UHGV virus genome: UHGV-0270338
Strand: one strand, 5' to 3'
DNA: 20,783 nt
Origin: a virus
Positions within the stretch are counted from its first letter, which is position 1; the number at the start of each line of letters is the position of its first letter. Made by a program: the position numbers and the translations under genes. Positions 5,513 through 20,038 of the stretch are shown here, one piece after another. A model generated the notes under the pieces. It made no database searches, was not told where the DNA came from, and worked only from the letters and a program-made list of their open reading frames with translations.

Positions 5513-5639
5513 TTTCATTACTGCAAATGCCCCTGCGGGGGCATTTATGGAAACGTAATTTACTCAATAATCGCCGGATGGTGAGGGATTCTTTTTACCA
5601 GAATTCAGCGCGGTGCAGCGCATATACGTGGAGAACAAA

Positions 5640-6176: not shown

Positions 6177-6529
6177 ATGTTTTCGAAATGGAAGGGTTTC
6201 TTCGTGGGAGATGTGTACCGCGAGATCTGAAAGTAAATGAAACAGATGCTGAATACCTGGTGCGTAAATTCGATGCGCTTGAAGCTAAATGTGCAGCACA
6301 GGAAAACAAAGTAATACCAGTGTCAACTGAACTGCCACCAGCAAATGAAAGTGTTTTGTTATTCGATGCTAACGGAGAAGGCTGGCTAATTGGCTGGCGT
6401 TCTCTCTGGTACACCTGGGGACAAAAAGAAACCGGAGAATGGCAGTGGACATTTCAGGTCGGGGACCTTGAAAACGTCAATATCACTCACTGGGCAGTAA
6501 TGCCAAAAGCACCGGAGGCTGGAGCATAA
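6167..6529 (+). CDS. yfdS: YfdS-like (DUF551) prophage protein
   Basis: 120 aa; synteny after yfdR-like; start overlaps yfdR stop. Confidence 0.5.
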   Translation: MRMNVFEMEGFLRGRCVPRDLKVNETDAEYLVRKFDALEAKCAAQENKVIPVSTELPPANESVLLFDANGEGWLIGWRSLWYTWGQKETGEWQWTFQVGDLENVNITHWAVMPKAPEAGA

Positions 6530-6834
6530 TGACCACTTTTACCGACAAAGAACTGATTAAAGAAATTAAAGAGCGTATCAGCAGCCTTGACGTGCGAGAC
6601 GATATTGAGCGCCGTGCTTATGAAATCGCACTCCTATCTCTGGAAGTAGAACCAGATGAACGCGAAGCTTATGAATTATTCATGGAAAAGCGTTTCGGTG
6701 ACTTAGTAGATCGTCGGAGAGCAAAAAACGGCAATAACGAATACATGGCATGGGATATGACTCTCGGTTGGATCGTCTGGCAGCAACGAGCTGGTATCCA
6801 TTTTTCAACAATGTCACAGCAAGAGGTGAAATAA
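6529..6834 (+). CDS. yfdT: YfdT-like prophage protein
   Basis: 101 aa; synteny; overlaps neighbours by 1 nt on each side. Confidence 0.45.
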   Translation: MTTFTDKELIKEIKERISSLDVRDDIERRAYEIALLSLEVEPDEREAYELFMEKRFGDLVDRRRAKNGNNEYMAWDMTLGWIVWQQRAGIHFSTMSQQEVK

Positions 6835-7184
6835 TGGAGCCATACAGCCTCACACTCGATGAGGCCTGTCATTTTCTCAAGATATCCAGACCGACTGCCA
6901 TTAACTGGATACGCACAGGGCGTCTTCAGGCAACACGCAAAGATCCCACTAAGAATAAATCTCCTTACCTCACAACACGACAAGCCTGCATTGCGGCTCT
7001 TCAGTCTCCGCTGCATACTGTCCAGGTGAGCGCGGGTGATGGCATAACAGAGGAAAGAAAATGTCACTCTTCCGCAGAGGTGAAATATGGTACGCCAGTT
7101 TCACATTGCCGAACGGTAAAAGATTTAAACAGTCTCTTGGAACAAAGGACAAAAGGCAGGCGACAGAACTCCATGACAAGCTAA
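6834..7184 (+). CDS. xis: Excisionase (Xis), P22-type
   Basis: 116 aa from ATG 6834 (SD gaggtg upstream; TAATG overlap with yfdT stop); HTH-like [26 protein letters not shown]; 3' end overlaps int start as in lambdoid int-xis modules. Confidence 0.6.
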
Positions 7185-8224
7185 AGGCTGAAGCATGGCG
7201 GGTCAGCAAACTTGGTGAAATACCTGATATAACGTTCGAGGAAGCGTGTGTCAGGTGGCTTGAAGAGAAAGCACATAAAAAATCACTGGACGATGACAAA
7301 AGCCGGATCGGATTCTGGCTTCAACATTTCGCAGGAATGCAACTAAGAGACATTACTGAATCAAAAATTTATTCAGCAATGCAGAAAATGACGAACCGGC
7401 GTCATGAGGAAAACTGGAAACTCAGGGCAGAAGCATGCAGAAAAAAAGGGAAACCTGTTCCAGAATACACGCCAAAACCAGCGTCCGTTGCAACGAAGGC
7501 TACGCATCTTTCATTTATAAAGGCCCTACTAAGAGCCGCAGAGCGTGAATGGAAAATGCTGGATAAGGCACCAATTATTAAAGTGCCTCAACCAAAGAAT
7601 AAACGGATCCGCTGGCTGGAGCCCCATGAAGCACAAAGGCTGATTGATGAATGTCCGGAGCCATTAAAGTCTGTTGTTGAATTTGCACTGGCAACAGGCT
7701 TAAGACGCTCGAACATCATCAACCTTGAATGGCAACAAATAGATATGCAGCGCCGGGTGGCATGGATAAACCCGGAAGAGAGTAAATCAAACCGCGCAAT
7801 TGGCGTTGCGCTGAATGATACTGCATGTCGCGTATTGAAAAAACAAATCGGGAATCATCACCGTTGGGTATTTGTGTACAAGGAAAGCTGTACCAAACCA
7901 GACGGAACGAAAGCGCCAACAGTAAGGAAGATGCGGTATGACGCAAACACAGCCTGGAAAGCGGCGCTGAGACGGGCTGGTATTGATGATTTCAGATTTC
8001 ACGACTTGAGACACACCTGGGCAAGTTGGCTGGTTCAAGCCGGAGTCCCGTTGTCAGTTTTACAGGAAATGGGAGGCTGGGAGTCTATCGAAATGGTTCG
8101 TCGATATGCTCACCTTGCACCTAATCACCTTACCGAACACGCACGGCAAATAGACTCGATCCTGAATCCATCGGTCCCAAATTTGTCCCAGTCAAGAAAT
8201 AAGGAAGGTACTAATGATGTGTAA
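7061..8224 (+). CDS. int: Tyrosine integrase, P22-family-like
   Basis: 387 aa; catalytic signature ATGLRRSN (R), FHDLRHTWA (HxxR), VRRYAHL (Y); stop codon 2 nt before the tRNA-Thr-derived att repeat. Confidence 0.85.
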
Positions 8225-8225
8225 C

Positions 8226-8257
8226 TTATTGATTTTAATGGTGCCGATAATAGGAGT
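8226..8257. repeat. att repeat: displaced copy of the tRNA-Thr 3' end (19 nt) plus 11 nt of downstream flank
   Basis: ttattgatttt-aa-tggtgccgataataggagt matches 20628..20662 (ttattgatttt-cttga-tggtgccgataataggagt); the 19-nt part is the reverse complement of the tRNA 3' end ACTCCTATTATCGGCACCA. Confidence 0.85.
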
Positions 8258-8343
8258 AAAACACTCGATTAATCTCGTGTTAATGCCATCACCTACGACC
8301 ATTACTAATTGATTGAATCTTATAGAAAAAATTATCATTTTCT

Positions 8344-9678
8344 ATGCGTTACAATCAATTTTCACATTACAAACGCTCCGACACTTTAGCCGGGGAGTTT
8401 ATGAGATACAAGCCCAATCAATACATAATCTGTGATTCTTACGGTAACTACTATTTACGGATCACGCTGCCTGTGTATATGCAGCCCTTTTTTGAAGGAA
8501 AAAGGACGTTTGTCAGGAGTCTGCACACAAGTAATCTTCGTGTTGCACGTAGAAAGCGTGATCAGATTGCAGATGAATACCATTGCTTACGGGAGAGTGT
8601 TGCCCCTGTAAACAGCACAATAGAGAACACGCTGGAACTGTTACGCAGTAAGGCTAAATACGCCAAAACAGCTACCAGAATGCAAGATACAGCGTCTTCG
8701 TGTCCGTCATTGCTTAAAATTCTTGAAATCTACCTGACAATTAACAGCACGAAGAAGAAGCCAGCCACTTTAGCTAAGGCAAGAAAAGCGGTAGAGATGT
8801 TTCTCTCCTACCGTAAAAAGCCTGATATTGCATTGCAAGATGTAAGCCGCACCACTGTTACAGGCTGGATTGAACACATGCAAAAAACCCTTTCACAACA
8901 ATCAATTGCAAATTATATCAGCCCAATGGCCCAGCTATGGGAGTTAGCTTCATCACGTTACCACGATGCGCCAGAAAGGGCGCTCTCCCCCTGGCGAGGG
9001 CATAGGCTTGATGTGGCACAAAGTAGAGAGAGCTACGAGGCATTTTCTAACAAAGAGCTATTGCAGGTGTTGCAAGTATTTTCCGGTAATTCAGCAGAAA
9101 ACAAAGAAATGATGGCTTTGTGTCTTATCGGTGCTTATACAGGTATGCGGATCAATGAGATAGCAAGTCTCACAATAGACGATGTGAAAGAGATCGAAGG
9201 TGTGCTGTGTTTTGAAATCACACAGGGAAAAACGAAAGCTGCGGCGCGTGTTGTGCCTGTACATAGCCTTATCACTCCGTTGGTGTTGTCGCTGCGTGAA
9301 AAGCCTCATAATGGCTTTTTGTTCTATCACGCCAGCATCACAGAACGTGCTGATGGTAAACGTTCCACGTGGCACACGCAGAGATTTACAAGAGCTAAAC
9401 GAAAGGCTTTAGGGGAAAAGGGAACAGAAAGGAAAGTGTTTCATTCTCTGAGACACGGAGTAGCACAGCTTCTTGATCGAAATCAAATTCCAGAAGACAG
9501 GATCGCCCTTCTCCTGGGCCATACACGCGGCAATACAGAGACATTCCGCACATATAGCAAGAATGCAGCTTCTCCAGTAGAGCTTAAAAAATATATTGAG
9601 CTTCTACGCTACCCTGAAATAGAGAAAGGCTTATCAATCAATAAAAAATCAAATTTAAGGCGTAAAACAACGCCATAG
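8344..9678 (+). CDS. Tyrosine integrase of the second element
   Basis: 444 aa (alternative start ATG 8401 with ggggag SD gives 425 aa); motifs TGMRINEIASL (R), FHSLRHGVAQLL (HxxR), LLGHTRGN...FRTYSK (H, Y); unrelated in sequence to the upstream int. Confidence 0.8.
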   Translation: MRYNQFSHYKRSDTLAGEFMRYKPNQYIICDSYGNYYLRITLPVYMQPFFEGKRTFVRSLHTSNLRVARRKRDQIADEYHCLRESVAPVNSTIENTLELLRSKAKYAKTATRMQDTASSCPSLLKILEIYLTINSTKKKPATLAKARKAVEMFLSYRKKPDIALQDVSRTTVTGWIEHMQKTLSQQSIANYISPMAQLWELASSRYHDAPERALSPWRGHRLDVAQSRESYEAFSNKELLQVLQVFSGNSAENKEMMALCLIGAYTGMRINEIASLTIDDVKEIEGVLCFEITQGKTKAAARVVPVHSLITPLVLSLREKPHNGFLFYHASITERADGKRSTWHTQRFTRAKRKALGEKGTERKVFHSLRHGVAQLLDRNQIPEDRIALLLGHTRGNTETFRTYSKNAASPVELKKYIELLRYPEIEKGLSINKKSNLRRKTTP

Positions 9679-9686
9679 ACGCAATA

Positions 9687-9720
9687 AAGAGGCTTCAACA
9701 TAGATTGGTAGCCTCTTTTA
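9687..9720. terminator. Bidirectional hairpin terminator between int2 and the convergent minus-strand operon
   Basis: aagaggct ... agcctctt 8-bp stem followed by tttta on plus strand and preceded by aataaa. Confidence 0.45.
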
Positions 9721-9759
9721 TAATTACATCGTTACAGAGCGTTTTAGAGGCATTTACGG

Positions 9760-10473
9760 CTATTCCTGTTTAAAGGCAGGAGTAATAGTGTCTTCACCTT
9801 CACTACTTGATTTTTCAGTGTTAACACGTTTTTTCATATTAGCCCCGATGTTCTTAGATGGCTGTGTTTTGATAGCTACAGTGTTTACAGTGCCATAAGA
9901 AACGAGCCTGATCTGCTCAAAGCTAAGATCAAATACTAGGGATTCGCTTGCCTCTTCTGTGTATTCGATGCCTGTTAAAACAACGTTCTCAAAAGTTTTA
10001 TTTTCTGTAACAAGAAGAAAAGGCTGTCTACTGTCCATAATCTGATTCAGATAATCAATCGCTAATGATCTTCTGTTCCCGTTCACCCCTGCACTCTTTA
10101 ACAAGCCAGGATCGCTTTTAATCGGTGTTTCAGTGATCCTTCCTTTAAGAGAAAACTTATTGTTTTTAATTTGAACGTGATCCGATACATTAGCACCATT
10201 TTCTACGGGGTAGCTTGTAACATCTGCCGAACGTCTCACGTTCACATCGTCAACACTGTCAAAGGCCAGTGCCATATAATTTTCATAAACGTCATTACCA
10301 GAAGATGCCAGCCCACTGGTAACAATAGCAAATCCATTTTCTCCTTTTGTTTTATTGGCTTTGCTATTTTCGTTTTTTGTAGAGTTTATATCTTGTTCTG
10401 CTTTGTAAACAGCCTGAACGTGTTGTTCTGGAGTATTTGCTGCACGTATGGTTAAAATCCCGGCGGTCGCCAT
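9760..10473 (-). CDS. Hypothetical protein, last gene of the structural-like operon
   Basis: 237 aa ORF, Ser/Thr/Asn-rich; no recognisable motif. Confidence 0.45.
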   Translation of the reverse strand: MATAGILTIRAANTPEQHVQAVYKAEQDINSTKNENSKANKTKGENGFAIVTSGLASSGNDVYENYMALAFDSVDDVNVRRSADVTSYPVENGANVSDHVQIKNNKFSLKGRITETPIKSDPGLLKSAGVNGNRRSLAIDYLNQIMDSRQPFLLVTENKTFENVVLTGIEYTEEASESLVFDLSFEQIRLVSYGTVNTVAIKTQPSKNIGANMKKRVNTEKSSSEGEDTITPAFKQE

Positions 10474-10506
10474 AATAATAATTTCCTTGTAATGTTATGG
10501 CGGGAA

Positions 10507-12345
10507 TTACCCGCCGTTGGATTGTCCTGATAAGCTGGTTAATGTTAATGATTTCAAGAAGCTATCCCGACTTGCTCTCGCTGTAAAATCCACATAATCG
10601 CTTAATCTGGATGTGTCAGAATTAATAGTAAGAGGAACTTCTGTTACCACTTCAAATGTAGGATTCAGATTAAACACAGGAGATAAATTATAAGCCGGAG
10701 TTGTCATTGCAAGATTATTTAAAGCACCCTGTTTGAGATTGGTTATCGGTGCTTCGCTGACTGACATTTTTACATCTGACACAGAAGAAGCATTATCATC
10801 GAAAAGCAATCCCTTAAGAGTGTTAAAGAAAGAATGACTATTATCAGGTGTAGTTGTTGCAGTGCCAGCGCCTTTATATTGGTCAGGAACGAGCTTAGAA
10901 AGATGCTGTTTCATCCCTTCATTGCTTAATGGCGGTGCATCTCCCATATTTTTCTGAATAGCATCTGTCTTATCATCATTACGATTAAACCAGTTTACAA
11001 TCTTCATAATGGCTTCAAAAAGACTTCCTGACGCTTCTCCTAGCCTTGTAAAATACGGAGTGAGATTAGAAAGGTTTTTCATAAACTCTTCCGTTACTTT
11101 TGGATCGAGAGATTTCATAAAGCCGTCTACGAATGCTACTTGTCTTGCATCAGAAAGCTGTGAAAGCTGTCTGTTTAGTTCTCTGAATTTAACAATAGAG
11201 TCTTGCTGTGTTTCTGTTAGCCATTTTCCAGAGGCTTTTTGCTGATTAATACTTTCTTGTACATCTTTAACGGAACGTTGCCAATATTTTGACGTAAGCA
11301 TCAAATCATCGCCCAGGTCTTCTAAACGTTGTCCAATTTGGGAGTCTGAAAACCCTTTTTTCATCATTCCATTAACAGCCTTAGAAATTAATCCGGCTGG
11401 ATTATCAGCAAATTTTTTAAGGTCGCTCTTGTTAATAACACCGATGTTTAGAAGTTCATTAATAGCGTTATCACCGCCTTTCCATTCGCCGCCTTTACCA
11501 GTTTTTTTATCGACTACATATTCAGCTTCACTATAGGATTTTGCGGCACGTTCCCTAACATCTTTCATCTGATCCAGGTATTTCCTAGCCCCTTGATCAC
11601 CCATCATAGAGTCAACGCCGTTTCTATAGGCCCATTCTGTAATGTTGTACATCTGGTTAACGTCTACACCGCCAAGCCTTGCACGTTGAATTAGCTCACC
11701 TTGTGTCTCTGCGTTAGCGAAACTGTTACTAACAAACTCCGACGCTTTACTAACAGCCATCACGCCAGCAGCCGCTGTAGCGCCTCCAAATAACAGAGCA
11801 CCCATCGTGGCGGAATTCCCTGATCCTCCTCCCTTAACGGGGGCTAATTGAGCTTTTCTGTTGCCATTAATCTTACGTTGTTGCTGTTGTAGGCGTTTCA
11901 TCTGACTATTCATACGTGCAAGCGAGATAGCCCCTTGCTCATATTGTTTTGCTATCTCTCTAGCCTGTGCAATAGCTTTGTATTGTTCCGCTACAGAGAG
12001 GCGGTGCATTGCACTGATAGAGCTTGACACATCAAGGAGTTTTAATTCTGCTTTCTCTTTACGTGCTGCTATTTGTTGCTGTTGCCTTGCCTGTGCTCTT
12101 GCTGCGGCAGCTTGTGCTCTTTGATTTTGTTTTTCGGTTTTAGCTTTCTGTTGAGCAATCTTATCTACTTCACTTTGTGCTTTCTTATAGCCTTTAGTGA
12201 CATTATCAAACCTTAATTTAGCGGGCTTGATGTTTTCTGCGAATTCCTTTAAGCCTGTAATAGAGTCTTTCGCTTTTTTCAAGCTGTCTTTATCTACACT
12301 AAATGTTACTGTGTTCTTAATTTTAGAAGTGTTAATTTCTAACAT
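10507..12345 (-). CDS. Coiled-coil protein with Gly/Ala-rich hydrophobic segment (tape-measure-like or scaffold-like)
   Basis: 612 aa; N-terminal Q/A/K/R-rich helical region (AQAAAARAQARQQQQIAARKEKAELK), then GGGSGNSATMGALLFGGATAAAGVMAV; no Walker A or other catalytic motif seen. Confidence 0.5.
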   Translation of the reverse strand: MLEINTSKIKNTVTFSVDKDSLKKAKDSITGLKEFAENIKPAKLRFDNVTKGYKKAQSEVDKIAQQKAKTEKQNQRAQAAAARAQARQQQQIAARKEKAELKLLDVSSSISAMHRLSVAEQYKAIAQAREIAKQYEQGAISLARMNSQMKRLQQQQRKINGNRKAQLAPVKGGGSGNSATMGALLFGGATAAAGVMAVSKASEFVSNSFANAETQGELIQRARLGGVDVNQMYNITEWAYRNGVDSMMGDQGARKYLDQMKDVRERAAKSYSEAEYVVDKKTGKGGEWKGGDNAINELLNIGVINKSDLKKFADNPAGLISKAVNGMMKKGFSDSQIGQRLEDLGDDLMLTSKYWQRSVKDVQESINQQKASGKWLTETQQDSIVKFRELNRQLSQLSDARQVAFVDGFMKSLDPKVTEEFMKNLSNLTPYFTRLGEASGSLFEAIMKIVNWFNRNDDKTDAIQKNMGDAPPLSNEGMKQHLSKLVPDQYKGAGTATTTPDNSHSFFNTLKGLLFDDNASSVSDVKMSVSEAPITNLKQGALNNLAMTTPAYNLSPVFNLNPTFEVVTEVPLTINSDTSRLSDYVDFTARASRDSFLKSLTLTSLSGQSNGG

Positions 12346-12359
12346 TTAAAATCCCCTTA

Positions 12360-12563
12360 TTAATCATTTTTACCACCTTCTTTACTTAAGAAATGGTGTA
12401 GAGCCTGATCAATACTCTCGTTTAGTCTGAACATACGGGCTTTTACTCCTTCATATGGAACATCTAAGAGAGAACATAGATATTTCAGATTTAACAAGCC
12501 TCTTGAATCATTAGCATCTAAATGTACGTGTACACCATTTTTTGATTTCAAAATCACTTCCAT
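12360..12563 (-). CDS. Hypothetical small protein
   Basis: 67 aa; SD gaggtga upstream of ATG; directly follows an internal terminator. Confidence 0.4.
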   Translation of the reverse strand: MEVILKSKNGVHVHLDANDSRGLLNLKYLCSLLDVPYEGVKARMFRLNESIDQALHHFLSKEGGKND

Positions 12564-12587
12564 ATTTTAATCACCTCTCAAAATTTA

Positions 12588-12632
12588 AAAAATAAATAAA
12601 AAAAAGGCGAAGCGTGAATACACGCCACGCCT
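12588..12632 (-). terminator. Rho-independent terminator immediately after the capsid-like gene
   Basis: Minus-strand RNA forms aggcguggcgug-uauu-cacgcuucgccu followed by an 8-U run (plus-strand A-run 12590..12604). Confidence 0.6.
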
Positions 12633-12649
12633 CTATTACACGTTAAATA

Positions 12650-13678
12650 TTATTTAACAGTGATTTGAACGGAGAAGCCTACACCGTGGTTTACAACCAT
12701 CTGGCTATTCTCTGTAACAACGTTAACAGCATCACCACGAGAAGATTCATAGCTATAGCTGTACACCTCAGCAGGAGCGGCATTAATCAGTTCAAAGGTG
12801 CTGGAAGCAGCCCCGTAGATGTTCTGATATACATTAGAGCCTTTAGCAAACTTCGGAACCGCTACAGCGTCTGCGGTCATATGTGCAAGGTGTAGCGGAT
12901 CTACCAGTTTAATAACATCAATGTTAGTTCCTGGAATAGTGAACGCTGTCACCCCCGGTAGCAGGTCACGACGCTGGTACACAACATTTCCCTCTTCCAG
13001 TGGGCTTACATACTGGAATGCGTTTGCCATACCCGCAGAGAATCGAATTGCAGAGAAGGCTTCCGGCTTACAGAAAACAACAATACGCTCTACAGCAGCC
13101 GCCTGGCTTTGTGCTTTCTCGATAATGTCAGTAGCAATCTGATCAAATTCTTTAAAAATCTTCGTGGTGTCAGTGCTGGAGGCGTTAACAGTGGCTTTCA
13201 TAGGTGTCACATTAAACAGCTTGCCCCACTCGATAAGAACATCATCAGTTTTCGGGGTGTAGGTGCGACCACTAAACAGAGAAGCAGCCAATACGCTCTC
13301 TTTTGTACGCTGATACGCTACGTGGTGTTTAGCAACATAGTCAGCATAGATATCAGTGAGTGTTTCCTGAAAATCAGTGCCAGGCTTACGCTTGCCTTGC
13401 ACGTCCTGCGGTTTGATCAGGTCTTGCCTTAAAAAGTACGGGATTTCAATAAGATATTCTTTACCTTGTTCTCGCTTAGTAACGTTGTGTTCAGAAGAGA
13501 AACGAGAGGTTTCTTTGTTGAACAGAGATTCGTTGCTTTCGACAAGCTGGGAAACAGCTACTTTATGAGATGTAACCCCTACAGAATCCGTAAAATCAAG
13601 AGTAGAGAGCAGATAGTTTCTAGTGCTATGAGCCTGGAAAAGCGGAGCTAAATCAACGTAATCATTACCTAGAATCAT
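12650..13678 (-). CDS. Putative HK97-fold major capsid-like protein
   Basis: 342 aa; segment RIVVFCKPEAFSAI...MANAFQYVSPLEEGN resembles, from memory, the conserved region of podovirus T7 gp10-type capsid proteins; followed by a strong terminator as is typical for a major structural gene; no signal peptide. Confidence 0.45.
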   Translation of the reverse strand: MILGNDYVDLAPLFQAHSTRNYLLSTLDFTDSVGVTSHKVAVSQLVESNESLFNKETSRFSSEHNVTKREQGKEYLIEIPYFLRQDLIKPQDVQGKRKPGTDFQETLTDIYADYVAKHHVAYQRTKESVLAASLFSGRTYTPKTDDVLIEWGKLFNVTPMKATVNASSTDTTKIFKEFDQIATDIIEKAQSQAAAVERIVVFCKPEAFSAIRFSAGMANAFQYVSPLEEGNVVYQRRDLLPGVTAFTIPGTNIDVIKLVDPLHLAHMTADAVAVPKFAKGSNVYQNIYGAASSTFELINAAPAEVYSYSYESSRGDAVNVVTENSQMVVNHGVGFSVQITVK

Positions 13679-13696
13679 TTATTATTATTCCTTTTA

Positions 13697-14059
13697 TTAA
13701 GAAGTGAAAACAGAGTGGAACCCTTCAAGCTGGAAGCCTTTTTTAATTAATGCTGTTTTTGCTGCTTCACTTACAGCATTCAGCGCATCAGCTTTGATGC
13801 AGACAAGGCCAGCATTGCTACGTAGCACATCTACAGGCTTGTTGTCTCCAGCCGTTAAAAACTCACTCATAACAACATAGATATCATCTCCTGATACATA
13901 TTTAGCGCCAGTGCTGGTGATCAAGTCGCCGCATTCAACATCAGCAGGAAGAGAAGCAAAAACCTTGCTTTCTACAGAGGCAAACGGATCAGTACAATAA
14001 CTTACAATATCTGTGAAAGTCTTTCGAACTGGAAATAGAGTGTCTAAATCAATAATCAT
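13697..14059 (-). CDS. Hypothetical protein (possible head accessory, decoration or scaffold protein)
   Basis: 120 aa; immediately upstream of the capsid-like gene, start overlaps stop of preceding ORF. Confidence 0.35.
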   Translation of the reverse strand: MIIDLDTLFPVRKTFTDIVSYCTDPFASVESKVFASLPADVECGDLITSTGAKYVSGDDIYVVMSEFLTAGDNKPVDVLRSNAGLVCIKADALNAVSEAAKTALIKKGFQLEGFHSVFTS

Positions 14060-14268
14060 TTAGTAATCTCCTTAGCTTTTAATTTGATTAATTCATTAAG
14101 GGAAGGTGTAGACGGAGAAGAAGGAGAAAAATATTTTTCAACACAACGTTCCACTTCTTCGACAGAACACCCAGCGTATTTAGCTACCATTTCGGTAATT
14201 TGTGGATTGATCTTTAGCATTTCATCGCGATACTTGATGATTTGCTCTTTATCATTTAAAAACAACAT
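14056..14268 (-). CDS. Hypothetical small protein, first gene of operon B
   Basis: 70 aa; translationally coupled (ATGA overlap) with the next gene. Confidence 0.35.
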   Translation of the reverse strand: MLFLNDKEQIIKYRDEMLKINPQITEMVAKYAGCSVEEVERCVEKYFSPSSPSTPSLNELIKLKAKEITK

Positions 14269-14303
14269 TTATATAAACCTTGTTACCTTGTTTAAAGTAA
14301 GAA

Positions 14304-14323
14304 ATACAACTTTTAAGTTGTAT
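14304..14323. promoter_or_regulatory. Perfect palindrome ATACAACTT-TT-AAGTTGTAT, candidate operator at the operon B promoter
   Basis: 9-bp inverted repeat with 2-bp spacer between the upstream terminator and the first ORF of operon B. Confidence 0.4.
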
Positions 14324-14335
14324 AACGGGCAAAAT

Positions 14336-14365
14336 AAAAGGCAGCATTTAGAGCCGCCTTTTATT
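14336..14365. terminator. Bidirectional hairpin terminator separating operon A from operon B
   Basis: aaaaggcagc-atttaga-gccgcctttt, flanked by A-run and T-run. Confidence 0.5.
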
Positions 14366-14392
14366 AACTTGTACCTATGTAATTACCCTATG

Positions 14393-14420
14393 TTATGCAT
14401 ACTCCAAGATGTATGCATAA
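14393..14420. promoter_or_regulatory. Two copies of palindromic octamer TATGCATA (ttatgcatac ... gtatgcataa), candidate operator
   Basis: Inverted pair of 10-mers, each containing a self-complementary TATGCATA. Confidence 0.35.
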
Positions 14421-14611
14421 CAAAGGAAAAAAGAGGTAATAATGACACTTAAGGAGGAGGAGAAGCGGGGAGCGGAGATTTTACTCCCCTTTAACGACAA
14501 GAAGAATTTTTAATATCGAACCAATAAAGGAAAAATAATCACCCTATATAATTATATTAACATACAATAGATGAAATGTCAAGATATTTTACAACTTTTT
14601 TGTTGCTTTTT

Positions 14612-14974
14612 TTATTCTTCTGTGATAACGGCTAAGCGTTGAGCGAGTTCGATAAGGCCATCTCCCACATAGCGAACATCAGATTCAATATCTTCTATCC
14701 AGTTTGATAGCTCCCATATCTGATCGGCTGTCAGGTATGCGTTCTCACGCTTACAGAGCATCTCTACACGCTTAGAGAGGTGCTCAAAGGCATTTACAGC
14801 TAAATCCCAGTGTTTAAACGCCTCATTAAGTGCCGCTGGCGTATTTTCTTTATATGCATCAAGTTCAGCGCGGTTTAAAGGCAGGAGGTAATCATCCTCA
14901 TAATAATTAATTAGTGAGTAAATTGTATCATACGTGTTTTTGTTCATATTAAAAGTCTCCATAGTGATCATCAT
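14612..14974 (-). CDS. Hypothetical helical protein
   Basis: 120 aa ORF; likely true start at internal ATG (MNKNTYD..., ggag 9 nt upstream). Confidence 0.4.
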   Translation of the reverse strand: MMITMETFNMNKNTYDTIYSLINYYEDDYLLPLNRAELDAYKENTPAALNEAFKHWDLAVNAFEHLSKRVEMLCKRENAYLTADQIWELSNWIEDIESDVRYVGDGLIELAQRLAVITEE

Positions 14975-15356
14975 TATCTAAATGGAATTCAGGAACTAAA
15001 TTATTTAGGCCATTGGTGGCGAGATAACCAACGTAGTGGTTATAGTCTTCAAATCCTAAAATCTGGTATTTGCGTAAATCAGAGCTGTCAACGATATACT
15101 CTTTTCTTTTTCTAGGTTTCCAGAACACGCCAGGTGTTGAAGATAAGATTTCTTGTAATGCGATATATTCATCTCCACAAGGCACAGAGGGAGAATGTTC
15201 TATGATCTCTGTTTTCCATTCGCCAGGGGCGCTATTTTGCTTGGAGAGCGTAACTAGCTCTTTAAAGTCTTTGCGTCTTAGAATAGATTTAGGTTTACTT
15301 AGAAGAGAAGCTGAATCACCGATTTTCTTAACAACGTTGTTTTTTCTTTTTGCCAT
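14949..15356 (-). CDS. Hypothetical protein with basic N-terminus and acidic C-terminus
   Basis: 135 aa; MAKRKNNVVKK N-terminus; ends ...HLDNDDHYGDF. Confidence 0.4.
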   Translation of the reverse strand: MAKRKNNVVKKIGDSASLLSKPKSILRRKDFKELVTLSKQNSAPGEWKTEIIEHSPSVPCGDEYIALQEILSSTPGVFWKPRKRKEYIVDSSDLRKYQILGFEDYNHYVGYLATNGLNNLVPEFHLDNDDHYGDF

Positions 15357-15485
15357 TTATTTTTCCTTTTCTTTTAAAGGAAAACACCCCGAAGTATGTT
15401 TCTAACGTGAGAAAGAACAATAACCAATACATAGCTACTATCATAATAATGTTTTCCTTTTATATTTTAATTACATAGAGAGATT

Positions 15486-15761
15486 TTAGAGAGTGGAATA
15501 GATGAATTCTACTTTACCCAGTCTTTTGAGATTGAATGTAGAGAAAGATAATTCTTTAATCTCTATAACACCGAAATTTGATAGCTGTCTAAGCCAGAAT
15601 TTTAAACCATCTTCAGAGCAAGCTGCTCGATGTAACACATCGCTATATTTTAGCGGTGTTGGCTTTCCTTTATAGAGGTAAGCAAGTGTCTCGTAGATGC
15701 GTTTTCCTGTGTCATTACACTGAATTCTGTCTACTTGATTTTTTACTAAATATTGAATCAT
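15486..15761 (-). CDS. Hypothetical small protein
   Basis: 91 aa ORF in operon A. Confidence 0.4.
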   Translation of the reverse strand: MIQYLVKNQVDRIQCNDTGKRIYETLAYLYKGKPTPLKYSDVLHRAACSEDGLKFWLRQLSNFGVIEIKELSFSTFNLKRLGKVEFIYSTL

Positions 15762-15772
15762 AACCCTCCTTA

Positions 15773-16429
15773 TTAAAATGGAATATCAAAGTCATCATAC
15801 ACATTTGGGTAATGCTTAGAAAAATATGCCTCAATACCATTTGGTAGCTTTAACCTGTGCTTATAGGCTAACGATGTTGCAAATTCTATAAATGATGCTC
15901 CTCCTGTTCTTTTGTCTTTCTTCTGGATGATAAGAGAGGCAAAATTCTCTAACACATCCTCCTCATTATCATTAGCTACCTTTTCACTTGATGAAACAGG
16001 TGTTTCTTCCGTCTCCCACGGTAAAGGCGTATCCCAATCATCATCAAGAACATCAAAAGAAGACTCTTTATTATCTTCCGTAGGGGGAAGCTGATCAGGA
16101 ACAGCTTTAACAGTAGCTTCTTGTTGTGTCTGGGCTTCTTGTCTAGCTTCTTCTTGTGGAATATCTACCACTTGATAGACATTAGAACTTCCTGGTCGTG
16201 CATCTTTTATAATTAATCCCATTTCGAGCAATTTCTTAACCCTTTCCTCTGCTGCTCTTGGTGTTATGCCAAAAACATCGCCTATCTTAGCGTAAGAGGG
16301 AAATGCACGATCAAACCCTTTCAGATAGCAGTAAAGGTTTTTAGCACTATCTGTAAATTTATGCCCGTTTACTTGGCTTATTTTTAGAATCCACATAGGA
16401 ACTTTTACAAATTGTTCTTCATTAATCAT
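15773..16429 (-). CDS. Winged-helix DNA-binding protein with acidic linker and SSB-C-terminal-tip-like tail (candidate replication initiator / host replisome recruiter)
   Basis: 218 aa; N-terminal HTH-like segment (FPSYAKIGDVFGITPRAAEERVKKLLEMGLI); long D/E/Q-rich linker; C-terminus ...YDDFDIPF, close to the E. coli SSB tip DDDIPF. Confidence 0.55.
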   Translation of the reverse strand: MINEEQFVKVPMWILKISQVNGHKFTDSAKNLYCYLKGFDRAFPSYAKIGDVFGITPRAAEERVKKLLEMGLIIKDARPGSSNVYQVVDIPQEEARQEAQTQQEATVKAVPDQLPPTEDNKESSFDVLDDDWDTPLPWETEETPVSSSEKVANDNEEDVLENFASLIIQKKDKRTGGASFIEFATSLAYKHRLKLPNGIEAYFSKHYPNVYDDFDIPF

Positions 16430-16480
16430 TAAAAATCTCCTTATAAATCACGCTTAATGCGCTACTAAAGTGAATGAGGA

Positions 16481-16648
16481 TCACTTACCCTTTTTTTGTT
16501 TGATGTTCTCTGCTGCTTCAGTAATGATTTCTAACATCAAATCACTGACCATAATTTGCCTTTTCTTGGCTTCAGCAAATAAAACCTTGAAGATTTCAGG
16601 GTCAACGTGTAGGTAAGTGCGCGGAATTGGTTTCTTAGTTTCGCTCAT
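16481..16648 (-). CDS. Ribbon-helix-helix (RHH) DNA-binding protein
   Basis: 55 aa from ATG 16648 with excellent SD (aagaggaggag); beta-strand RTYLHV followed by two helices (PEIFKVLFAEAKKRQ, MVSDLMLEIITEA) typical of Arc/CopG/Omega fold. Confidence 0.55.
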   Translation of the reverse strand: MSETKKPIPRTYLHVDPEIFKVLFAEAKKRQIMVSDLMLEIITEAAENIKQKKGK

Positions 16649-16670
16649 AGTTTTCTCCTCCTCTTGTCTA

Positions 16671-16853
16671 TTATTCTTTCTCTGCTTCTTTCTTACGCAG
16701 TTCATCAATAATTTTCAGTGCATCGTCAAAACATTTTTCACGCTCTGGATAACCTCGACTCCTTGCCATATTACGGTTCATTACTACTTGGTGGCGTGTA
16801 AGCTCACCTTTTTTAAATGCCTGGACGACGTGCTCAGATGTAAACCATTTCAT
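16671..16853 (-). CDS. Small hypothetical protein, first gene of operon A (possible regulator or directionality factor)
   Basis: 60 aa; SD aaggag upstream; immediately upstream of the RHH gene. Confidence 0.4.
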   Translation of the reverse strand: MKWFTSEHVVQAFKKGELTRHQVVMNRNMARSRGYPEREKCFDDALKIIDELRKKEAEKE

Positions 16854-17616
16854 AAAAAACTCCTTATTCAGTTAAAAGAAATAAAACACCTTGCAAGCCT
16901 GACGGCTTCAAAGTGCATTGATTTTGATTATTTAGAGAAGAATGTTTTTCTGTCCCTCTAATACCTATTATTACATATAAAGAAACATTTGTCAATACCT
17001 TTTCATAAAAAATCTGATCTTTTTCATGCACTTACATTTTTTCTTAGCTATTCGTGCTCTTCTGTGTAGTGCTATTCTTCATTATCCGCTAAAACGCTCT
17101 AAAACGCGTTCTAACGAGATTTTGATAAAAGCAATACATTGCCTTATCTAATGGCTGTTTAGCTCGCCAGAGGCTTATTTAAGGGGCTTATTTTGTATTT
17201 GTTAGGTATATGAAAAGGTAATGGTAAATATAAAACAGAGAGTCACTTTATAAAACGCTCTGTAAAGACCTGTAGTGAGCTTATTATATGTAGGCAATGC
17301 GTTTCCATTCCCTACCCTGCTTAATGCTGTTAGAGAAGCATTTAGACCCCTTATTTTTAATTACCTAAAGTATCCTCTATACATCTCTGTTATGAAACAC
17401 CTCTGAATCCTTCATAAAACACATTATGACGCAAAGAACACTTTTCTAAGGTGATTCCCTTCCTGAACTCTGTTTCTTGCGTCAGAGAGCTACAGAGAGC
17501 TTATAAAGCTATTATTAATAATAAAGTAGATAAAGTAAGTAAGATAACTAAGATAGATAAGATTAATAAGATCAGAATTCTCTTTCGGTGTCGCCTCTGG
17601 CTTTTCCACCGAAAAC

Positions 17617-17740
17617 AATTACACGACTACAGAATGTGGAAGTGGAATTGTATTGAGGCTTAGTGAAATTACACGAGGAAAGCAGAGTGTAATTGAGCTT
17701 TAGCCGCTCTCTCTTCGAGTAATTACACAACTACAGAGAA
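17617..17740. repeat. Array of AATTACAC-containing repeats, including palindrome AATTACAC-N12-GTGTAATT (17667..17694)
   Basis: aattacacgactacaga (17617) and aattacacaactacaga (17721) are near-identical 17-mers; perfect 8-bp inverted repeat between them. Confidence 0.5.
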
Positions 17741-17995
17741 TAACGAGAGTTATTAAATGTAGGAGGGTAATTAAGAGTTAGAGAGAGTTAACACGTAAGC
17801 AATCAGTATGATTGGTTAGGTGATTACTCTTCTGCGCACAGCGCAATAGTATTTCTTCGTGGGCGTTACCGCCACGATAGTTACACGAAGAAAGTAACGC
17901 TTTGCTTTCGGTGTGAGCGGAACGGGCCAGCCAACGTAGCCCGAAAGGTAGCGGAGTAAGGCTGCTTGCCAGAGAGTGAAGCTAACGCCGGAAGG

Positions 17996-18180
17996 CAAAA
18001 GATCATATAAATAAATATATAATATTATAATTTAATAAGTAATTTAATAAATGATCTAATAGGTAACAGAATTCTGTGGGGGTGTCTAACAGAATTCTGT
18101 TAGGGTGGGGTAACAGAATTTTGTTAGGGTACAAATCTCTTTAAAAGTTAAGATTAACAGAATTCTGTGGGGGTAGCTCA
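17996..18180. promoter_or_regulatory. Origin-like region: roughly 65 bp of almost pure A/T followed by four iterons TAACAGAATT(C/T)TGTnnGGGT
   Basis: Iterons at 18064, 18087, 18111, 18155 (spacing 23, 24, 44 bp); each contains the palindrome ACAGAATTCTGT; no ORF support. Confidence 0.55.
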
Positions 18181-18224
18181 CAGTGACCTACCGTTACTAC
18201 CAATCATCACATAGCACTCACTCT

Positions 18225-18700
18225 GTGTAATGCCTTTCTATGTGTGTGCCATAATCCCCTATATTCCCTGTGTAAATCATAGAATAATGCTCTCTATTCC
18301 CTGTGTAATTCCCTACTAAAAAATCCAATGAAAAATGGCTTCAAAGTGCAATGTTAGCTTTCTTCACTTTTACATCACTTTCGCAAAGCCTTGTGTAATG
18401 CGGTTTACAGAGCACCATCAGAAATTGTTGGCTAAAAATTGTTCTGCTTGTTTCTGAACGAGTTTTCTCGTTTGTGCAAATTTTAAAATTTATTTTGTTT
18501 TTACAGCCTTATTTCGTGTAATGCGTGGCATAGCAAGCCCTTTTCTTGTGTTGTCAAGACATTTGGCAACGTTCAAACATCTGTTTAGAAATGCCAAATT
18601 GTTGATCTAACAAATAAACCTGTATAAACAGAACACCATTTAATCTATCCCCCTGTGTATCCATTAGGCATACCAAATGAATACATCTAAATCGTGTAAT
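18225..18700. repeat. Dispersed same-orientation GTGTAAT heptad motifs (about 6 copies) upstream of the serine recombinase gene
   Basis: Copies near 18225, 18269, 18302, 18392, 18517, 18694; two share the longer context tattccctgtgtaa(a)t; opposite orientation to the ATTACAC copies left of the iterons. Confidence 0.45.
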
Positions 18701-18793
18701 ATTCCGTACCCATAAGGCTTGAAACAGACCAAATGAATACGATATACTCATTTGCATTGAAGTAGTGCCAAATCGATACATTAAGAGGATTTT

Positions 18794-19333
18794 ATGAGCA
18801 ATATCGGCTATAAGCGTGTGAGCACTGTAGATCAGAACACTGATCGCCAGCTTGCAGGAGTAACGCTTGATAAAGTCTTTGAAGATAAGCTGTCAGGTAA
18901 AGACACTAACCGTCCAGGATTGCAGGCGTGTTTATCCTATCTGAGAGAAGGCGACACCTTACACGTGCACTCTCTCGACCGTTTAGGACGTAACACCTTA
19001 GACATCCTTGCTTTAGTTGAACAACTTAATAATCGAGGTGTGATTGTTCGATTTCACAAAGAAGGAATCATTGCAGACATTACAAGCGCGATGGGAAAAA
19101 TGATGCTTACTATGTTGTCGGCAGTTGCAACGTGTGAACGTGAACTGATGTTAGAGCGTAAACGAGAAGCGCAAGCCGTCAATCCTACAAAGCGTGGTAA
19201 AGGTAAAGCAGTAGATAGGGAAGGTATAAAGAAAGCCCTTTCCGCTGGCGTGTCAGTGCGTAAAACCGCCGAGAGCTTTAATGTTGCTCCTTCAACGGTG
19301 CAACGTATCAAGAAGGAAGAAGAGGAGGCGTAA
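18794..19333 (+). CDS. Small serine recombinase (resolvase/invertase family)
   Basis: 179 aa; N-terminal YKRVSTVDQNTDRQ with catalytic Ser; GKMMLTMLSAVATCERE resolvase core; C-terminal HTH (VSVRKTAESFNVAPSTVQRIKK). Confidence 0.8.
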   Translation: MSNIGYKRVSTVDQNTDRQLAGVTLDKVFEDKLSGKDTNRPGLQACLSYLREGDTLHVHSLDRLGRNTLDILALVEQLNNRGVIVRFHKEGIIADITSAMGKMMLTMLSAVATCERELMLERKREAQAVNPTKRGKGKAVDREGIKKALSAGVSVRKTAESFNVAPSTVQRIKKEEEEA

Positions 19334-19349
19334 TGCCTCCTTGATATTT
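19324..19349 (+). terminator. Hairpin terminator overlapping the recombinase stop codon
   Basis: ggaggc-gtaat-gcctcc followed by ttgatattt. Confidence 0.4.
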
Positions 19350-19660
19350 GGGGATTCTGGATTTTCCAGATCGGGGGGCGCTGATCTTCGCGTTAAACAT
19401 TGATCACGTTTGCGCCGATTTCAGATAAAAAGGCAGCTATTAAGCAATACGTAACTTTTACAATTAGTGAAATTATCTAAAACACAAGTTATATAGATGA
19501 GAAAATGAAATATTATCTTGAACAAATCAAACAAAACAACACATCATCTTGTTGACACCATGCAAAGTGAATAGTAAGCTATTATATGTGAAAATTTGCA
19601 CATTGCATGCAATAAAAAATAAATGATACCTTGTTGTTGTTAAATCAATAGGGGGTATCT

Positions 19661-19819
19661 ATGCGCTTTATCTTATCCATTTTAAAAACCTGCAGAACCA
19701 CAATTACTTTAGCTGTAATTGTTACCATCATATACCTCATCTATTTTACCCCTCGAGATAAAATCGATTCACTAGCGATCATCGTTCATGCAATGGCTAC
19801 ATTAACTAAAAAACTTTAA
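19661..19819 (+). CDS. Small hydrophobic single-TM peptide (candidate type I toxin-like or membrane peptide)
   Basis: 52 aa MRFILSILKTCRTTITLAVIVTIIYLIYFTPRDKIDSLAIIVHAMATLTKKL; SD ggggg 5 nt upstream; below the 60-aa cutoff of the ORF track. Confidence 0.4.
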   Translation: MRFILSILKTCRTTITLAVIVTIIYLIYFTPRDKIDSLAIIVHAMATLTKKL

Positions 19820-19885
19820 TAATTTCACTATCAGGCGCACAAACACATCTTTGATTGCTGGATGTGTTATGCGCCTACTGGTGAT

Positions 19886-20038
19886 TCAATCCTTAAGCCA
19901 TTTCAACTCACTAAGGAGTTTTCTTTCTTCGTTCTCTCGCTGTTTACGCTCTAGCCAGGCTTTTCCCTCTGGCGTAGACAGGAACTTACGAGCGTGAATC
20001 TTGCGGTTATTACGTTTTATAGCTGCAATGTTTTTCAT
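19886..20038 (-). CDS. Small basic protein, convergent with the hydrophobic peptide gene
   Basis: 51 aa MKNIAAIKRNNRKIHARKFLSTPEGKAWLERKQRENEERKLLSELKWLKD; SD agagg 7 nt upstream of ATG. Confidence 0.3.
   Translation of the reverse strand: MKNIAAIKRNNRKIHARKFLSTPEGKAWLERKQRENEERKLLSELKWLKD

Follow-up and report, generated by a model that had tools for sequence, protein, structure and literature searches.

The 342-aa open reading frame at positions 12650-13678 of the window, the whole 20,783-nt stretch of DNA that was analysed, encodes an HK97-fold major capsid protein (MCP) of the lambda gpE and phi92 gp124 lineage, and a strong predicted Rho-independent terminator follows it. Both lie within an island of about 12 kb. 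With a little more belief than doubt, we read this island as a satellite of phi92-like myoviruses in which the MCP would be functional and expressed from a late operon, with a lifestyle like that of PLE/ICP1.

The capsid gene and its terminator

The features of the morphogenetic operon, all on the minus strand, are as follows.

14554-14582, minus strand: predicted sigma70-type promoter with extended -10 (TTGACA-17-TAATAT), serving the morphogenetic operon
14331-14362, minus strand: leader terminator-like hairpin and U-run, upstream of p70
14056-14268, minus strand: p70, first gene of the operon, its stop overlapping the p120a start
13697-14059, minus strand: p120a, always immediately upstream of the capsid gene
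12650-13678, minus strand: MCP gene, 342 aa, ATG start, HK97 fold, Phage_cap_E family
12598-12633, minus strand: intrinsic terminator, a 13-bp interrupted GC-rich hairpin (12604-12633) and U8 (12598-12605)
12360-12563, minus strand: p67, small island-specific protein encoded right before the tape-measure gene
10507-12345, minus strand: tape-measure protein (TMP) homologue, 612 aa (phrog_16051, E 1.3e-53)
9760-10473, minus strand: Dit-like tail-tube initiator or baseplate protein, 237 aa (Pfam Dit_like, E 1.5e-29)

The MCP ATG is preceded by an AAGGA ribosome-binding site. Residues 14-341 of the 342 matched Pfam PF03864 (Phage_cap_E) with 53.6 bits (cut-off 22.9; E 2.3e-14), which was the sole Pfam match of the protein; PHROG 29, 'major head protein', was matched as well, and all 26 of the aligned family members were full length. 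The initial annotation had described this frame as capsid-like and had proposed a fold comparison. The AF2 model (pLDDT 73.8, pTM 0.73), which contained a long spine helix at residues 103-136, retrieved HK97-fold capsid proteins exclusively in Foldseek, with PhiTE, ICP1, Bas63, Sf14, YSD1, chi, and lambda gpE in the lead, and aligned with the PhiTE, ICP1, Sf14, chi, and lambda capsid chains at probability 1.00 and TM 0.52-0.66. The fold was that of HK97 and not an unrelated one and, together with the PF03864 match, it bore out the capsid assignment. In a profile search of PDB sequences the best match was Phi92_gp124 (E 8.5e-20), to which the island MCP is approximately 22% identical, and its best phage relatives generally were gp124-like. 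The narrower resemblance to T7 gp10-type proteins was not upheld: T7 (3j7w) ranked 35th in Foldseek with a TM of about 0.45, the family was Phage_cap_E, and the phage matches obtained by tblastn were to Pseudomonas, Escherichia, and other non-T7 phages, so that specific kinship with T7 gp10 beyond the HK97 fold was rejected. No close relative of the island MCP was present among the sequenced phages searched. In some strains the MCP gene carries IS insertions.

The terminator stem after the MCP gene pairs GAGGCG-U-GGCGUG with CACGCU-U-CGCCUU and is followed by a run of exactly eight U residues. The hairpin had a predicted energy of -19.5 kcal/mol and was the top-scoring site in a terminator scan; the 91-nt region around it folded at -28.1 kcal/mol (z = -5.2), and none of 200 shuffled sequences folded as well. 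The operon runs in the order p70, p120a, MCP, terminator, p67, TMP, tail-tube initiator, and thus the earlier description of a hairpin and eight-U run with the operon continuing beyond them was correct on both counts, p67 and the TMP and Dit-like genes lying distally on the MCP strand. A hairpin and U-run, with other sequence, occupied the same place in at least six diverged island lineages; in the Sodalis island the hairpin was present and the U-run absent. The phage phi92 has the same layout, in which a small gene and the capsid gene gp124 are followed directly by a strong hairpin and U-run and then by further structural genes. On this evidence, conservation of the terminator position is more than chance.

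It is plausible that this terminator raises the amount of capsid protein over that of the distal gene products, and in favor of such a role its position has been kept in many lineages and in phi92. The hairpin would act by lowering transcription of the distal tail genes, of whose products few copies are needed, as in phi92. A rather unlikely alternative is that it is the plain end of a capsid transcription unit, with p67, TMP, and Dit expressed from an unseen promoter, for example a helper middle or late promoter, and with no stoichiometric attenuator. With a hairpin of this strength read-through may be low, as that alternative would have it, and the spacers 3' of the MCP gene, which range from 87 to 400 bp across lineages, leave room for a promoter; however, no sigma70-like promoter was predicted in the 86-nt spacer between terminator and p67 by a scan directed at sigma70-type promoters, a scope that itself leaves the alternative some ground. 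The tight packing of the genes on one strand argues against it, as does the phi92 arrangement, in which the same terminator-then-gene layout occurs without a recognisable promoter. This alternative concerns the role of the terminator only and is compatible with either the satellite reading or the defence reading considered below.

The leader hairpin hints at antitermination control of the operon, which would weaken the simple attenuation model and might override the post-MCP terminator too. The islands of Enterobacter, Serratia, and Sodalis and the L028 island have a hairpin and T-run at the corresponding site. The -10 region of the predicted operon promoter is identical in the Sodalis island. 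A promoter motif common to the island and phi92 was considered and discarded, being merely the ordinary strong sigma70 consensus.

Structure, contents, and distribution of the island

Two 20-bp direct repeats at tRNA-Thr enclose the island, which is 12,425 bp long and contains, besides the operon, the following features.

8238-8257, no strand assigned: left boundary repeat, 20 bp, ATGGTGCCGATAATAGGAGT, copy of the tRNA-Thr 3' end and exact repeat of 20643-20662
8344-9678, plus strand: tyrosine integrase, 444 aa (Pfam Phage_integrase, Phage_int_SAM_5, DUF6538)
14612-15761, minus strand: p120b, p135, and p91, three island-specific frames
15773-16429, minus strand: Rep-like initiator, 218 aa, N-terminal winged HTH (wHTH) (phrog_270, phrog_391, replication initiation)
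16484-16648, minus strand: 55-aa protein upstream of rep
18064-18183, no strand assigned: four iterons, TAACAGAATTCTGTGGGGGT-like, the first three spaced 23-24 bp, beside an AT-rich stretch
18794-19333, plus strand: small serine recombinase of the resolvase/invertase type, 179 aa (Pfam Resolvase, E 1.1e-33)
20643-20662, minus strand: right boundary repeat, inside tRNA-Thr(CGT) (20644-20719)

The iterons and the adjoining AT-rich stretch form a putative replication origin, and the 55-aa protein looks, by eye, like a ribbon-helix-helix protein. Rep alleles have been swapped among islands, and in strain NC101 the same island core lies at tRNA-Gly with a different integrase. At 612 and 444 aa, respectively, the TMP and integrase frames are the largest of the island, and the MCP frame comes next. 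No island frame matched portal, terminase, protease, or scaffold families, which agreed with the initial view of a 12-kb element lacking packaging machinery; likewise it yielded no packaging signal, no small terminase, and no gene for redirecting packaging. The island thus presents the combination by which satellites are recognised: a small integrative element with an integrase, att sites, a replication module, and an incomplete set of virion genes. When the ten island proteins encoded on the minus strand, Dit through Rep, were scanned with PADLOC and NCBIfam, nothing meaningful was returned, and an Rfam scan returned the tRNA alone. The window lies in a prophage-rich site, where a further integrase and degraded tail genes flank the island on its left; the CP4-6 prophage of K-12, at the same thrW site, has no obviously matching genes as judged from its annotation.

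Among the small proteins, p120a was conserved together with the MCP in lineages whose MCP identity was as low as 34%, and hhalign matched it to its L033 neighbour with a probability of 93.8%. A role in the capsid, accessory or decorative, is possible. With the phi92 decoration protein gp123 it shared a C-terminal ...AAL..GF...FTS motif only; hhalign comparisons of the two, both profile-to-sequence and profile-to-profile, gave probabilities of 1.5-7.7%, and BLASTP found nothing. A profile search of the PDB with p120a was empty, and its AF2 model was of low confidence (pLDDT 56), too poor for a fold search. p67 was partly conserved across the island family and had no similarity to phi92 gp133. 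For p67, p120b, p135, and p91 there was neither a family match nor a phage homologue, and the eight small island proteins, concatenated, had no tblastn match among 50,697 phage genomes. A distant island lineage also carries a homologue of the PhiTE-type head-tail adaptor; p135 showed no similarity to the PhiTE-adaptor-like protein of L033. Precomputed PF26075 and PF26210 matches in L033 were not reproduced with our local copy of Pfam.

A search of 5426 complete E. coli genomes found the MCP gene in 385 of them, with at most three copies per genome; NC101, BEN2908, and 89-3156 are examples of strains that carry the island. Full-length orthologues, down to 34-38% identity, occurred in Escherichia, Citrobacter, Enterobacter, Klebsiella, Cronobacter, Kluyvera, Buttiauxella, Serratia, and Sodalis, and the order rep ... 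p120a-MCP-terminator-TMP-(Dit)-integrase was kept across the Enterobacterales, the Dit-like gene being missing from several island lineages. Values of dN/dS were 0.08-0.15 for MCP, 0.1-0.2 for TMP, and 0.02-0.15 for Dit, and these three genes are all under purifying selection; the values were about 0.1 for p70 and 0.08-0.48 for p120b and p135. Plasmids contained island fragments only. No 12-kb circular or virion-derived contig of the island was found, the IMG/VR matches being provirus calls within longer contigs, and no match of island length was present in the phage collection.

Relationship to phi92-like phages and described satellites

By sequence comparison, the closest phage homologues of MCP, TMP, and Dit are those of the phi92-like virulent myoviruses (Stephanstirmvirinae), and the gene order of the island mirrors that of phi92, down to the terminator directly after the capsid gene. 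The Dit-like protein was 61% identical to phi92 gp135. The TMP aligned along most of phi92 gp134 (the N terminus and residues 86-612), its first 23 residues being nearly identical to those of gp134 despite synonymous changes; both TMP termini were phage-like despite synonymous differences, and the middle was diverged. The Enterobacter and Serratia island TMPs, too, matched phi92-like phages almost exclusively. In the related phage phiTE the tape-measure ends are located at the connector and the baseplate hub. Unlike phi92 gp124 and lambda gpE, the island gene is chromosomal and lies in a 12-kb element without the rest of a head module.

A second link to these phages was provided by the rep region, which was 90-99% identical in nucleotide sequence to regions of phages muut, inny, Mt1B1_P17, and BI-EHEC. 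Positions 16076-16659 of the window were 99.3% identical to muut over the matched segments, the 55-aa protein was 100% identical in amino-acid sequence to muut gp095, and the N-terminal 119 aa of Rep were 82% identical to Mt1B1_P17 gp053. In muut and Mt1B1_P17 the phage protein is a chimera whose two wHTH domains correspond to separate Rep alleles of the islands; amino-acid identity was 82-99% in three of four comparisons, whereas the first domain of muut gp094 reached 64-66%. It also has a MUG113/T5orf172 (GIY-YIG) nuclease domain, an assignment that rests on a borderline Pfam score (22.5 bits; cut-off 22.3) and on 40-47% identity to annotated endonucleases. This architecture is shared with Odn of ICP1, an anti-PLE nuclease that cuts the PLE origin (PMC8263062). 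The Odn-PLE pair differs in degree of match, Odn and RepA being 42% identical, whereas the chimera has two tandem Rep-type domains at 82-99% to island alleles. The Rep-domain/nuclease chimeras suggest that counter-defence of the Odn type arose independently.

Among satellites of virulent phages, the PLE-ICP1 pair of Vibrio cholerae is to date the best studied. Like PLE, the island is a small integrative element with its own Rep and iteron origin, tied to one virulent myovirus group, and, as in PLE-ICP1, some phages carry the DNA-binding domain of the island Rep joined to a T5orf172/GIY-YIG nuclease (PMC8263062). Unlike PLE, it shows no PLE-gene homology and belongs to a different host clade; the two are alike only in lifestyle and in the pattern of the arms race. 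Membership in PLE was rejected on its tyrosine integrase and wHTH/O-like Rep and on the absence of PLE-type matches (large serine recombinase, RepA_N, TcaP). According to PMC10945586, PLE remodels the helper coat protein by means of an external scaffold, TcaP, and no PLE capsid or tape-measure gene is described there, whereas the present island encodes both.

For the MCP itself the closest mechanistic precedent, by analogy, is Ccm of SaPIbov5, which takes up the pentamer positions and thereby imposes a small T=4 shell (PMC8569155). Both elements encode a homologue of the helper HK97-fold capsid protein and neither a portal nor a terminase; however, SaPIbov5 belongs to the PICIs and has temperate Staphylococcus siphoviruses as helpers, the present island has tail genes in addition, and incorporation of its MCP into capsids is putative. 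Island-encoded HK97-fold proteins also occur in the capsid-forming PICIs (cf-PICIs), such as EcCIEDL933, which are E. coli satellites that build capsids of their own. According to 10.1101/2022.09.08.507074, cf-PICIs encode all of the proteins for small capsids and exclusive packaging, and the helper gives only tails, whereas the present island has the MCP (and p120a) alone for the capsid, plus tail-interior genes. Assignment to the cf-PICIs was rejected on the absence of frames matching portal, protease, connectors, or a terminase subunit, and assignment to P4-like satellites on the absence of Psu, Delta, Sid, or alpha-primase matches when the island proteins were scanned against Pfam, PHROG, and NCBIfam.

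A satellite model and its alternatives

What we infer about induction by phage, packaging and transfer, capsid size change, and termination strength can be put together as follows. On infection by a phi92-like phage the island would be excised by its own integrase and replicated from the iteron origin by its own Rep. It would then express p70-p120a-MCP-[terminator]-p67-TMP-Dit, and the MCP, probably with p120a, would build or seed shells sized for a 12-kb genome, forming either the entire shell or, as Ccm does for SaPIbov5, selected capsomers. These shells would use the portal, scaffold/protease, and terminase of the helper, and the island TMP and tail-tube initiator would fit into the helper tail machine, the phage-like ends of the TMP corresponding to the connector and hub ends in phiTE. 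Because the MCP is only about one-fifth identical to gp124, co-assembly with the helper portal and scaffold is not obvious.

A fuller account, which we hold more tentatively and with slightly more doubt than belief, is that the island represents an undescribed Enterobacterales family of satellites of the Stephanstirmvirinae, with its own MCP and TMP and with portal, motor, and remaining tail from the helper, and that the phages counter it with a bivalent Odn-like nuclease made from captured Rep domains and with a stolen island regulator, in an arms race that would parallel, in E. coli, that of PLE and ICP1. In a literature search whose coverage left out most subscription journals, no description was found of the island or of satellites of phi92-, rV5-, or Phapecoctavirus-type phages. 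If the satellite reading is true, possession of both an MCP and a tape-measure protein would make the island unlike any described satellite, and a new kind of virion hijack would be involved in which the satellite gives shell protein and tail ruler and the helper gives portal, motor, and tail exterior. The island would also be a tractable E. coli model for a satellite of virulent phages. At least 7% of the complete E. coli genomes carry it, and, whether it interferes with these phages or rides on them, it would in practice help to determine both susceptibility to phages and gene transfer. Phages of the phi92, rV5, and Phapecoctavirus types are lytic coliphages with broad host ranges; they are often isolated and are under consideration for use in therapy and biocontrol. 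The phage Rep-domain/nuclease chimeras offer an immediate genetic handle for experiments.

The same structural genes might instead serve a defence island that poisons assembly, MCP, TMP, and Dit being dominant-negative decoys that abort phi92-like virions and protect the clone while the island itself stays unpackaged. We consider this distinctly unlikely. An island without portal, terminase, or recognisable packaging function is in keeping with it, and a TMP with phage-like termini and a diverged middle is what would be expected of a subunit that docks and then misfunctions; but a full-length MCP, long kept under strong purifying selection along with a co-conserved neighbour, fits shell-building better, and an adaptor homologue in one lineage points the same way. 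A block to tail assembly is a known defence strategy, that of the Tai systems (PMC11364771), yet the island had no PADLOC match. An Odn-like gene would be selected equally against a pure defence island that needed replication; against this reading, the full excision and amplification kit (integrase, att sites, Rep, iterons) and the spread of the island among genera, with exchange of integrases, speak for the satellite interpretation.

That the capsid and tail genes are functionless leftovers of a larger phage in a decayed prophage is highly improbable: although the site is rich in prophage material, with another integrase and degraded tail genes beside the island, and although IS elements interrupt the MCP gene of some strains, the att repeats are undamaged, dN/dS for each of the three structural genes falls far below 1, neither the MCP nor any small protein has a close counterpart among sequenced phages, the phage relatives that do exist are virulent 145-150-kb myoviruses that do not lysogenise, and many genera, at MCP identities of 34-98%, share the compact gene set and its order.

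An integrative element of 12,425 bp with a capsid gene

The initial annotation had placed a capsid-like gene, with a segment resembling a conserved region of T7 gp10-type capsid proteins, in an element of about 12 kb without packaging machinery. The following features define this element, an integrative island at tRNA-Thr, and the gene in question.

8238-8257 and 20643-20662: direct repeat of 20 bp, a copy of the tRNA-Thr(CGT) 3' end; island boundaries
12650-13678, minus strand: gene for the major capsid protein (MCP), 342 aa, with an ATG start and a ribosome-binding site
18794-19333, plus strand: small serine recombinase, at the tRNA-proximal end of the island

The 12,425 bp between the repeats hold a tyrosine integrase gene and, on the opposite strand, a promoter, small genes, a replication-initiator-like wHTH protein (Rep) and three unknown genes. 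The morphogenetic operon, preceded by a sigma70 promoter and a leader terminator, has the order p70-p120a-MCP-terminator-p67-TMP-Dit, where TMP is the tape-measure protein, Dit a Dit-like tail-tube initiator, and the others small genes. A 1.8-kb non-coding stretch carries four iterons beside AT-rich DNA, with the small serine recombinase beyond it; the Enterobacter, Serratia, Sodalis and L033 (a distant island) lineages have at the corresponding end a gene of about 185 aa resembling tyrosine recombinases. No gene in the island resembled those for a portal, terminase, protease or scaffold, and no ORF was large enough to be one, in agreement with the proposed size and lack of packaging functions. 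To the left of the island (1-8224) lies an unrelated prophage end with DUF2303, HD, DUF551, an excisionase-like HTH protein (xis) and a 387-aa integrase ending 14 bp short of the att repeat; beyond it are tail-gene fragments (Baseplate_J fragment, Mu gp48-like, fibre and tail-fibre assembly) and an acyltransferase. The two elements together look like a tandem occupation of thrW.

Full-length MCP scored above the curated threshold of the Pfam family Phage_cap_E (lambda gpE family) and also matched PHROG 29, 'major head protein'. With a profile built from 26 family members, its best solved relative was Phi92_gp124 (E 8.5e-20), the pairwise identity to phi92 gp124 being 22% over the whole length. 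The AF2 model (pLDDT 73.8) displayed the expected spine helix and beta-rich domains and, in the fold comparison that the initial annotation had called for, matched HK97-fold capsid chains only: PhiTE, the ICP1 coat (PLE complex), Bas63, Sf14, YSD1, chi and lambda gpE. T7 gp10 ranked only 35 among these structural matches; the fold prediction thus supports a capsid protein, and the specific likeness to T7 gp10 does not hold. In some strains (CH4804, OkiPb01677) an IS3-family element or IS600 has split the gene, which then appears in RefSeq as two 'major capsid protein' pieces.

The terminator behind the capsid gene

Two regions bear on transcription of the operon.

12604-12633, minus strand: hairpin GAGGCG-U-GGCGUG/UAUU/CACGCU-U-CGCCUU, nineteen bases past the MCP stop codon
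14331-14582, minus strand: strong sigma70 promoter of the MCP operon with an extended -10, structured leader, and terminator-like leader hairpin before the first gene

The hairpin behind MCP is followed by exactly eight U and then further U-rich sequence, and it was the top match of a terminator scan. The 91-nt region folds at -28.1 kcal/mol, relative to -13.8 +/- 2.8 for shuffled sequences (z = -5.2; 0 of 200 shuffles as good). Downstream on the same strand lie p67, a 612-aa ORF and a 237-aa ORF, so that the hairpin and U-run originally noted behind the 342-aa ORF, with the operon continuing past them, proved correct. Throughout the main E. coli clade the stem was identical, with the loop differing in one copy, and hairpins of different sequence with a U-run occupied the same position in a 74% clade, three 64-65% clades, Enterobacter and Serratia, the U-run being absent only in the Sodalis copy. 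Because this position is conserved across island lineages, and because phi92 has its own strong terminator directly 3' of gp124, the comparison supports a function of the terminator tied to the capsid gene.

A terminator behind a capsid gene is classically read as giving much capsid protein and little product from the distal genes; how efficient this one is, we infer. Within the 86-nt spacer after MCP no sigma70-type promoter was predicted, and p67, TMP and Dit may be expressed by read-through of the terminator or from an unseen promoter. The operon leader (220 nt) is itself structured (z = -6.1), its hairpin and U-run (a T-run in the DNA) lie 3' of the promoter at the same place in every lineage, and E. 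coli and Sodalis islands do not differ in the -10 region. As this layout resembles that of lambda PR'-tR', it suggests, by analogy, that the operon is under antitermination control. Antitermination, if processive, would act on the post-MCP terminator too, which is a caveat to the reading of high capsid and low distal expression.

Conservation and kinship with phi92-like phages

Of 5426 complete E. coli genomes, 717 contained the 7.3-kb island core, 285 of these with 80% cover or more; the MCP-plus-terminator segment occurred in 385, in up to 3 copies per genome and always on the chromosome. In strain 89-3156 the core occupies thrW, with the pao genes on one side and proA on the other. NC101 (L001 6746-19084) has the same core as window 8238-20719 at tRNA-Gly with a different integrase; from this, and from the multiple copies per genome, we conclude that otherwise near-identical islands exchange integrase modules. 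MCP orthologues of 341-349 aa, with identities down to 34-38%, occurred in Citrobacter, Enterobacter, Klebsiella, Cronobacter, Kluyvera, Buttiauxella, Scandinavium, Serratia and Sodalis, and their neighbourhood was kept (rep ... p120a-MCP-gap-small ORF-TMP-(variable)-integrase). Across the island family conservation is strongest for MCP together with p120a; TMP is fast-evolving, Dit is dispensable, and the islands have exchanged alleles of rep. Pairwise dN/dS was 0.08-0.15 for MCP, 0.1-0.2 for TMP, 0.02-0.15 for Dit and 0.02-0.2 for p120a. The island is a conserved mobile element, not debris. A distant lineage (L033/L034, 7100-13800; MCP 34% identical) has the same layout and, in precomputed Pfam matches that a local Pfam copy did not reproduce, a PhiTE head-tail adaptor (PF26075) and phiTE_211 (PF26210); such an adaptor homologue, if those precomputed matches are right, fits with virion building.

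By sequence, all three structural proteins point to Stephanstirmvirinae (phi92/Justusliebigvirus, Phapecoctavirus), virulent myoviruses of 145-155 kb, and their relatives. Dit is 61% identical to phi92 gp135. TMP (10507-12345, minus strand) aligns with phi92 gp134 (L008:16605-18584) over most of its length: besides the start codon one of the first 23 residues differs, despite several synonymous differences, and the last 14 or so residues are almost as in gp134 (both have a C-terminal ...LTL..SGQS..GG), with a diverged middle at about 26% identity. The C terminus of the Enterobacter island TMP is almost identical to that of phi92. In the related phage phiTE the connector houses the TMP N terminus, and the baseplate hub is also bound by the TMP (PMC11972413); by analogy, the conserved ends are likely contact surfaces. 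MCP relatives in the phage collection were at best 22-26% identical and included Pseudomonas myoviruses and the phiWec phages of E. coli, the tape-measure genes of the latter also being the best TMP matches; the Enterobacter and Serratia TMPs matched almost exclusively the phi92-type group. With the phi92 order being scaffold-decoration-MCP-terminator ... gp133-TMP-gp135, the island module looks like a condensed version of the phi92 scaffold-to-gp135 module. The eight small island proteins had no homologue among 50,697 phage genomes.

Phage proteins with island Rep domains

When the island was compared with the phage collection by megablast, window 16076-16659, comprising the 5' half of rep and the gene for a 55-aa protein, was 90-99% identical in nucleotides to phages muut, inny, Mt1B1_P17 and BI-EHEC. 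The matched phage gene was examined in the Stephanstirmvirinae phages muut and Mt1B1_P17.

16484-16648, minus strand: 55-aa protein gene, upstream of rep
L031:2371-3369: muut gp094, chimera gene
L032:2371-3357: Mt1B1_P17 gp053, chimera gene

The encoded proteins (328-332 aa) carry HTH_36 twice in tandem and, at the C terminus, a MUG113/T5orf172 domain with 40-47% identity to proteins of other phages that are annotated as GIY-YIG or homing endonucleases. Each wHTH domain matched the N terminus of a different island Rep allele: domain 1 of gp053 is 99% identical to that of islands L023 and L024 and 82% to that of the window, domain 1 of gp094 is 64-66% identical to the Enterobacter type, and domain 2 of both is 85-93% identical to those of islands L015 and L021. 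The 55-aa protein, which looks ribbon-helix-helix-like in sequence, is 100% identical in amino acids to muut gp095 (L031:3421-3588), adjoining the chimera gene, so that muut seems to have captured this island regulator as well. The full chimera is accessory in phages, since only about six phage records have it; the Rep-like gene is regular in islands, with alleles swapped among them. The architecture is that of ICP1 Odn, whose N-terminal domain is 42% identical to PLE RepA_N and whose fused T5orf172 nuclease cleaves the origin of PLE at the iterons (PMC8263062). Because the phage chimeras share this architecture and carry island Rep domains, they provide strong circumstantial evidence that island replication harms these phages.

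On the best-supported reading of these results, the island is a phage satellite that has phi92-like phages as helpers and brings its own capsid protein. Its gene content is unusual, and its relation to these phages strikingly parallels the arms race between PLE and ICP1; its induction, packaging and capsid size we infer. The closest precedent for a satellite-borne capsid-protein homologue is Ccm of SaPIbov5, which takes pentamer positions and forces T=4 shells (PMC8569155). The cf-PICIs are described as E. coli satellites making their own heads with a complete head and packaging module (10.1101/2022.09.08.507074), unlike this island. The chief alternative is a role in defence, in which the structural homologues would poison phage assembly without transfer of the island itself. 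A decayed prophage is very unlikely, given an element so conserved and mobile. A full-text literature search of incomplete coverage, such that an earlier description is possible, yielded no account of the island and none of a satellite for phi92-, rV5- or Phapecoctavirus-type phages. RefSeq lists the island genes mostly as hypothetical and gives a few of them generic names only ('major capsid protein', 'phage baseplate protein', integrase/recombinase).

The iterons of the non-coding stretch have the following position.

18064-18183: four iterons (TAACAGAATTCTGTGGGGGT-like, 23-24 bp spacing for the first three), adjoining AT-rich DNA at 18010-18060

This region is likely the replication origin, on which both Rep and the chimeric nuclease of the phages probably act. 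The surrounding non-coding region (16850-18800) had no match in Rfam; besides several families of repeats (ATTACAC boxes) it contains a structured, GC-rich segment at 17816-18012 and, at 18561-18597, a 37-nt block that is 86-94% conserved even among islands whose MCPs are only about 64% identical.
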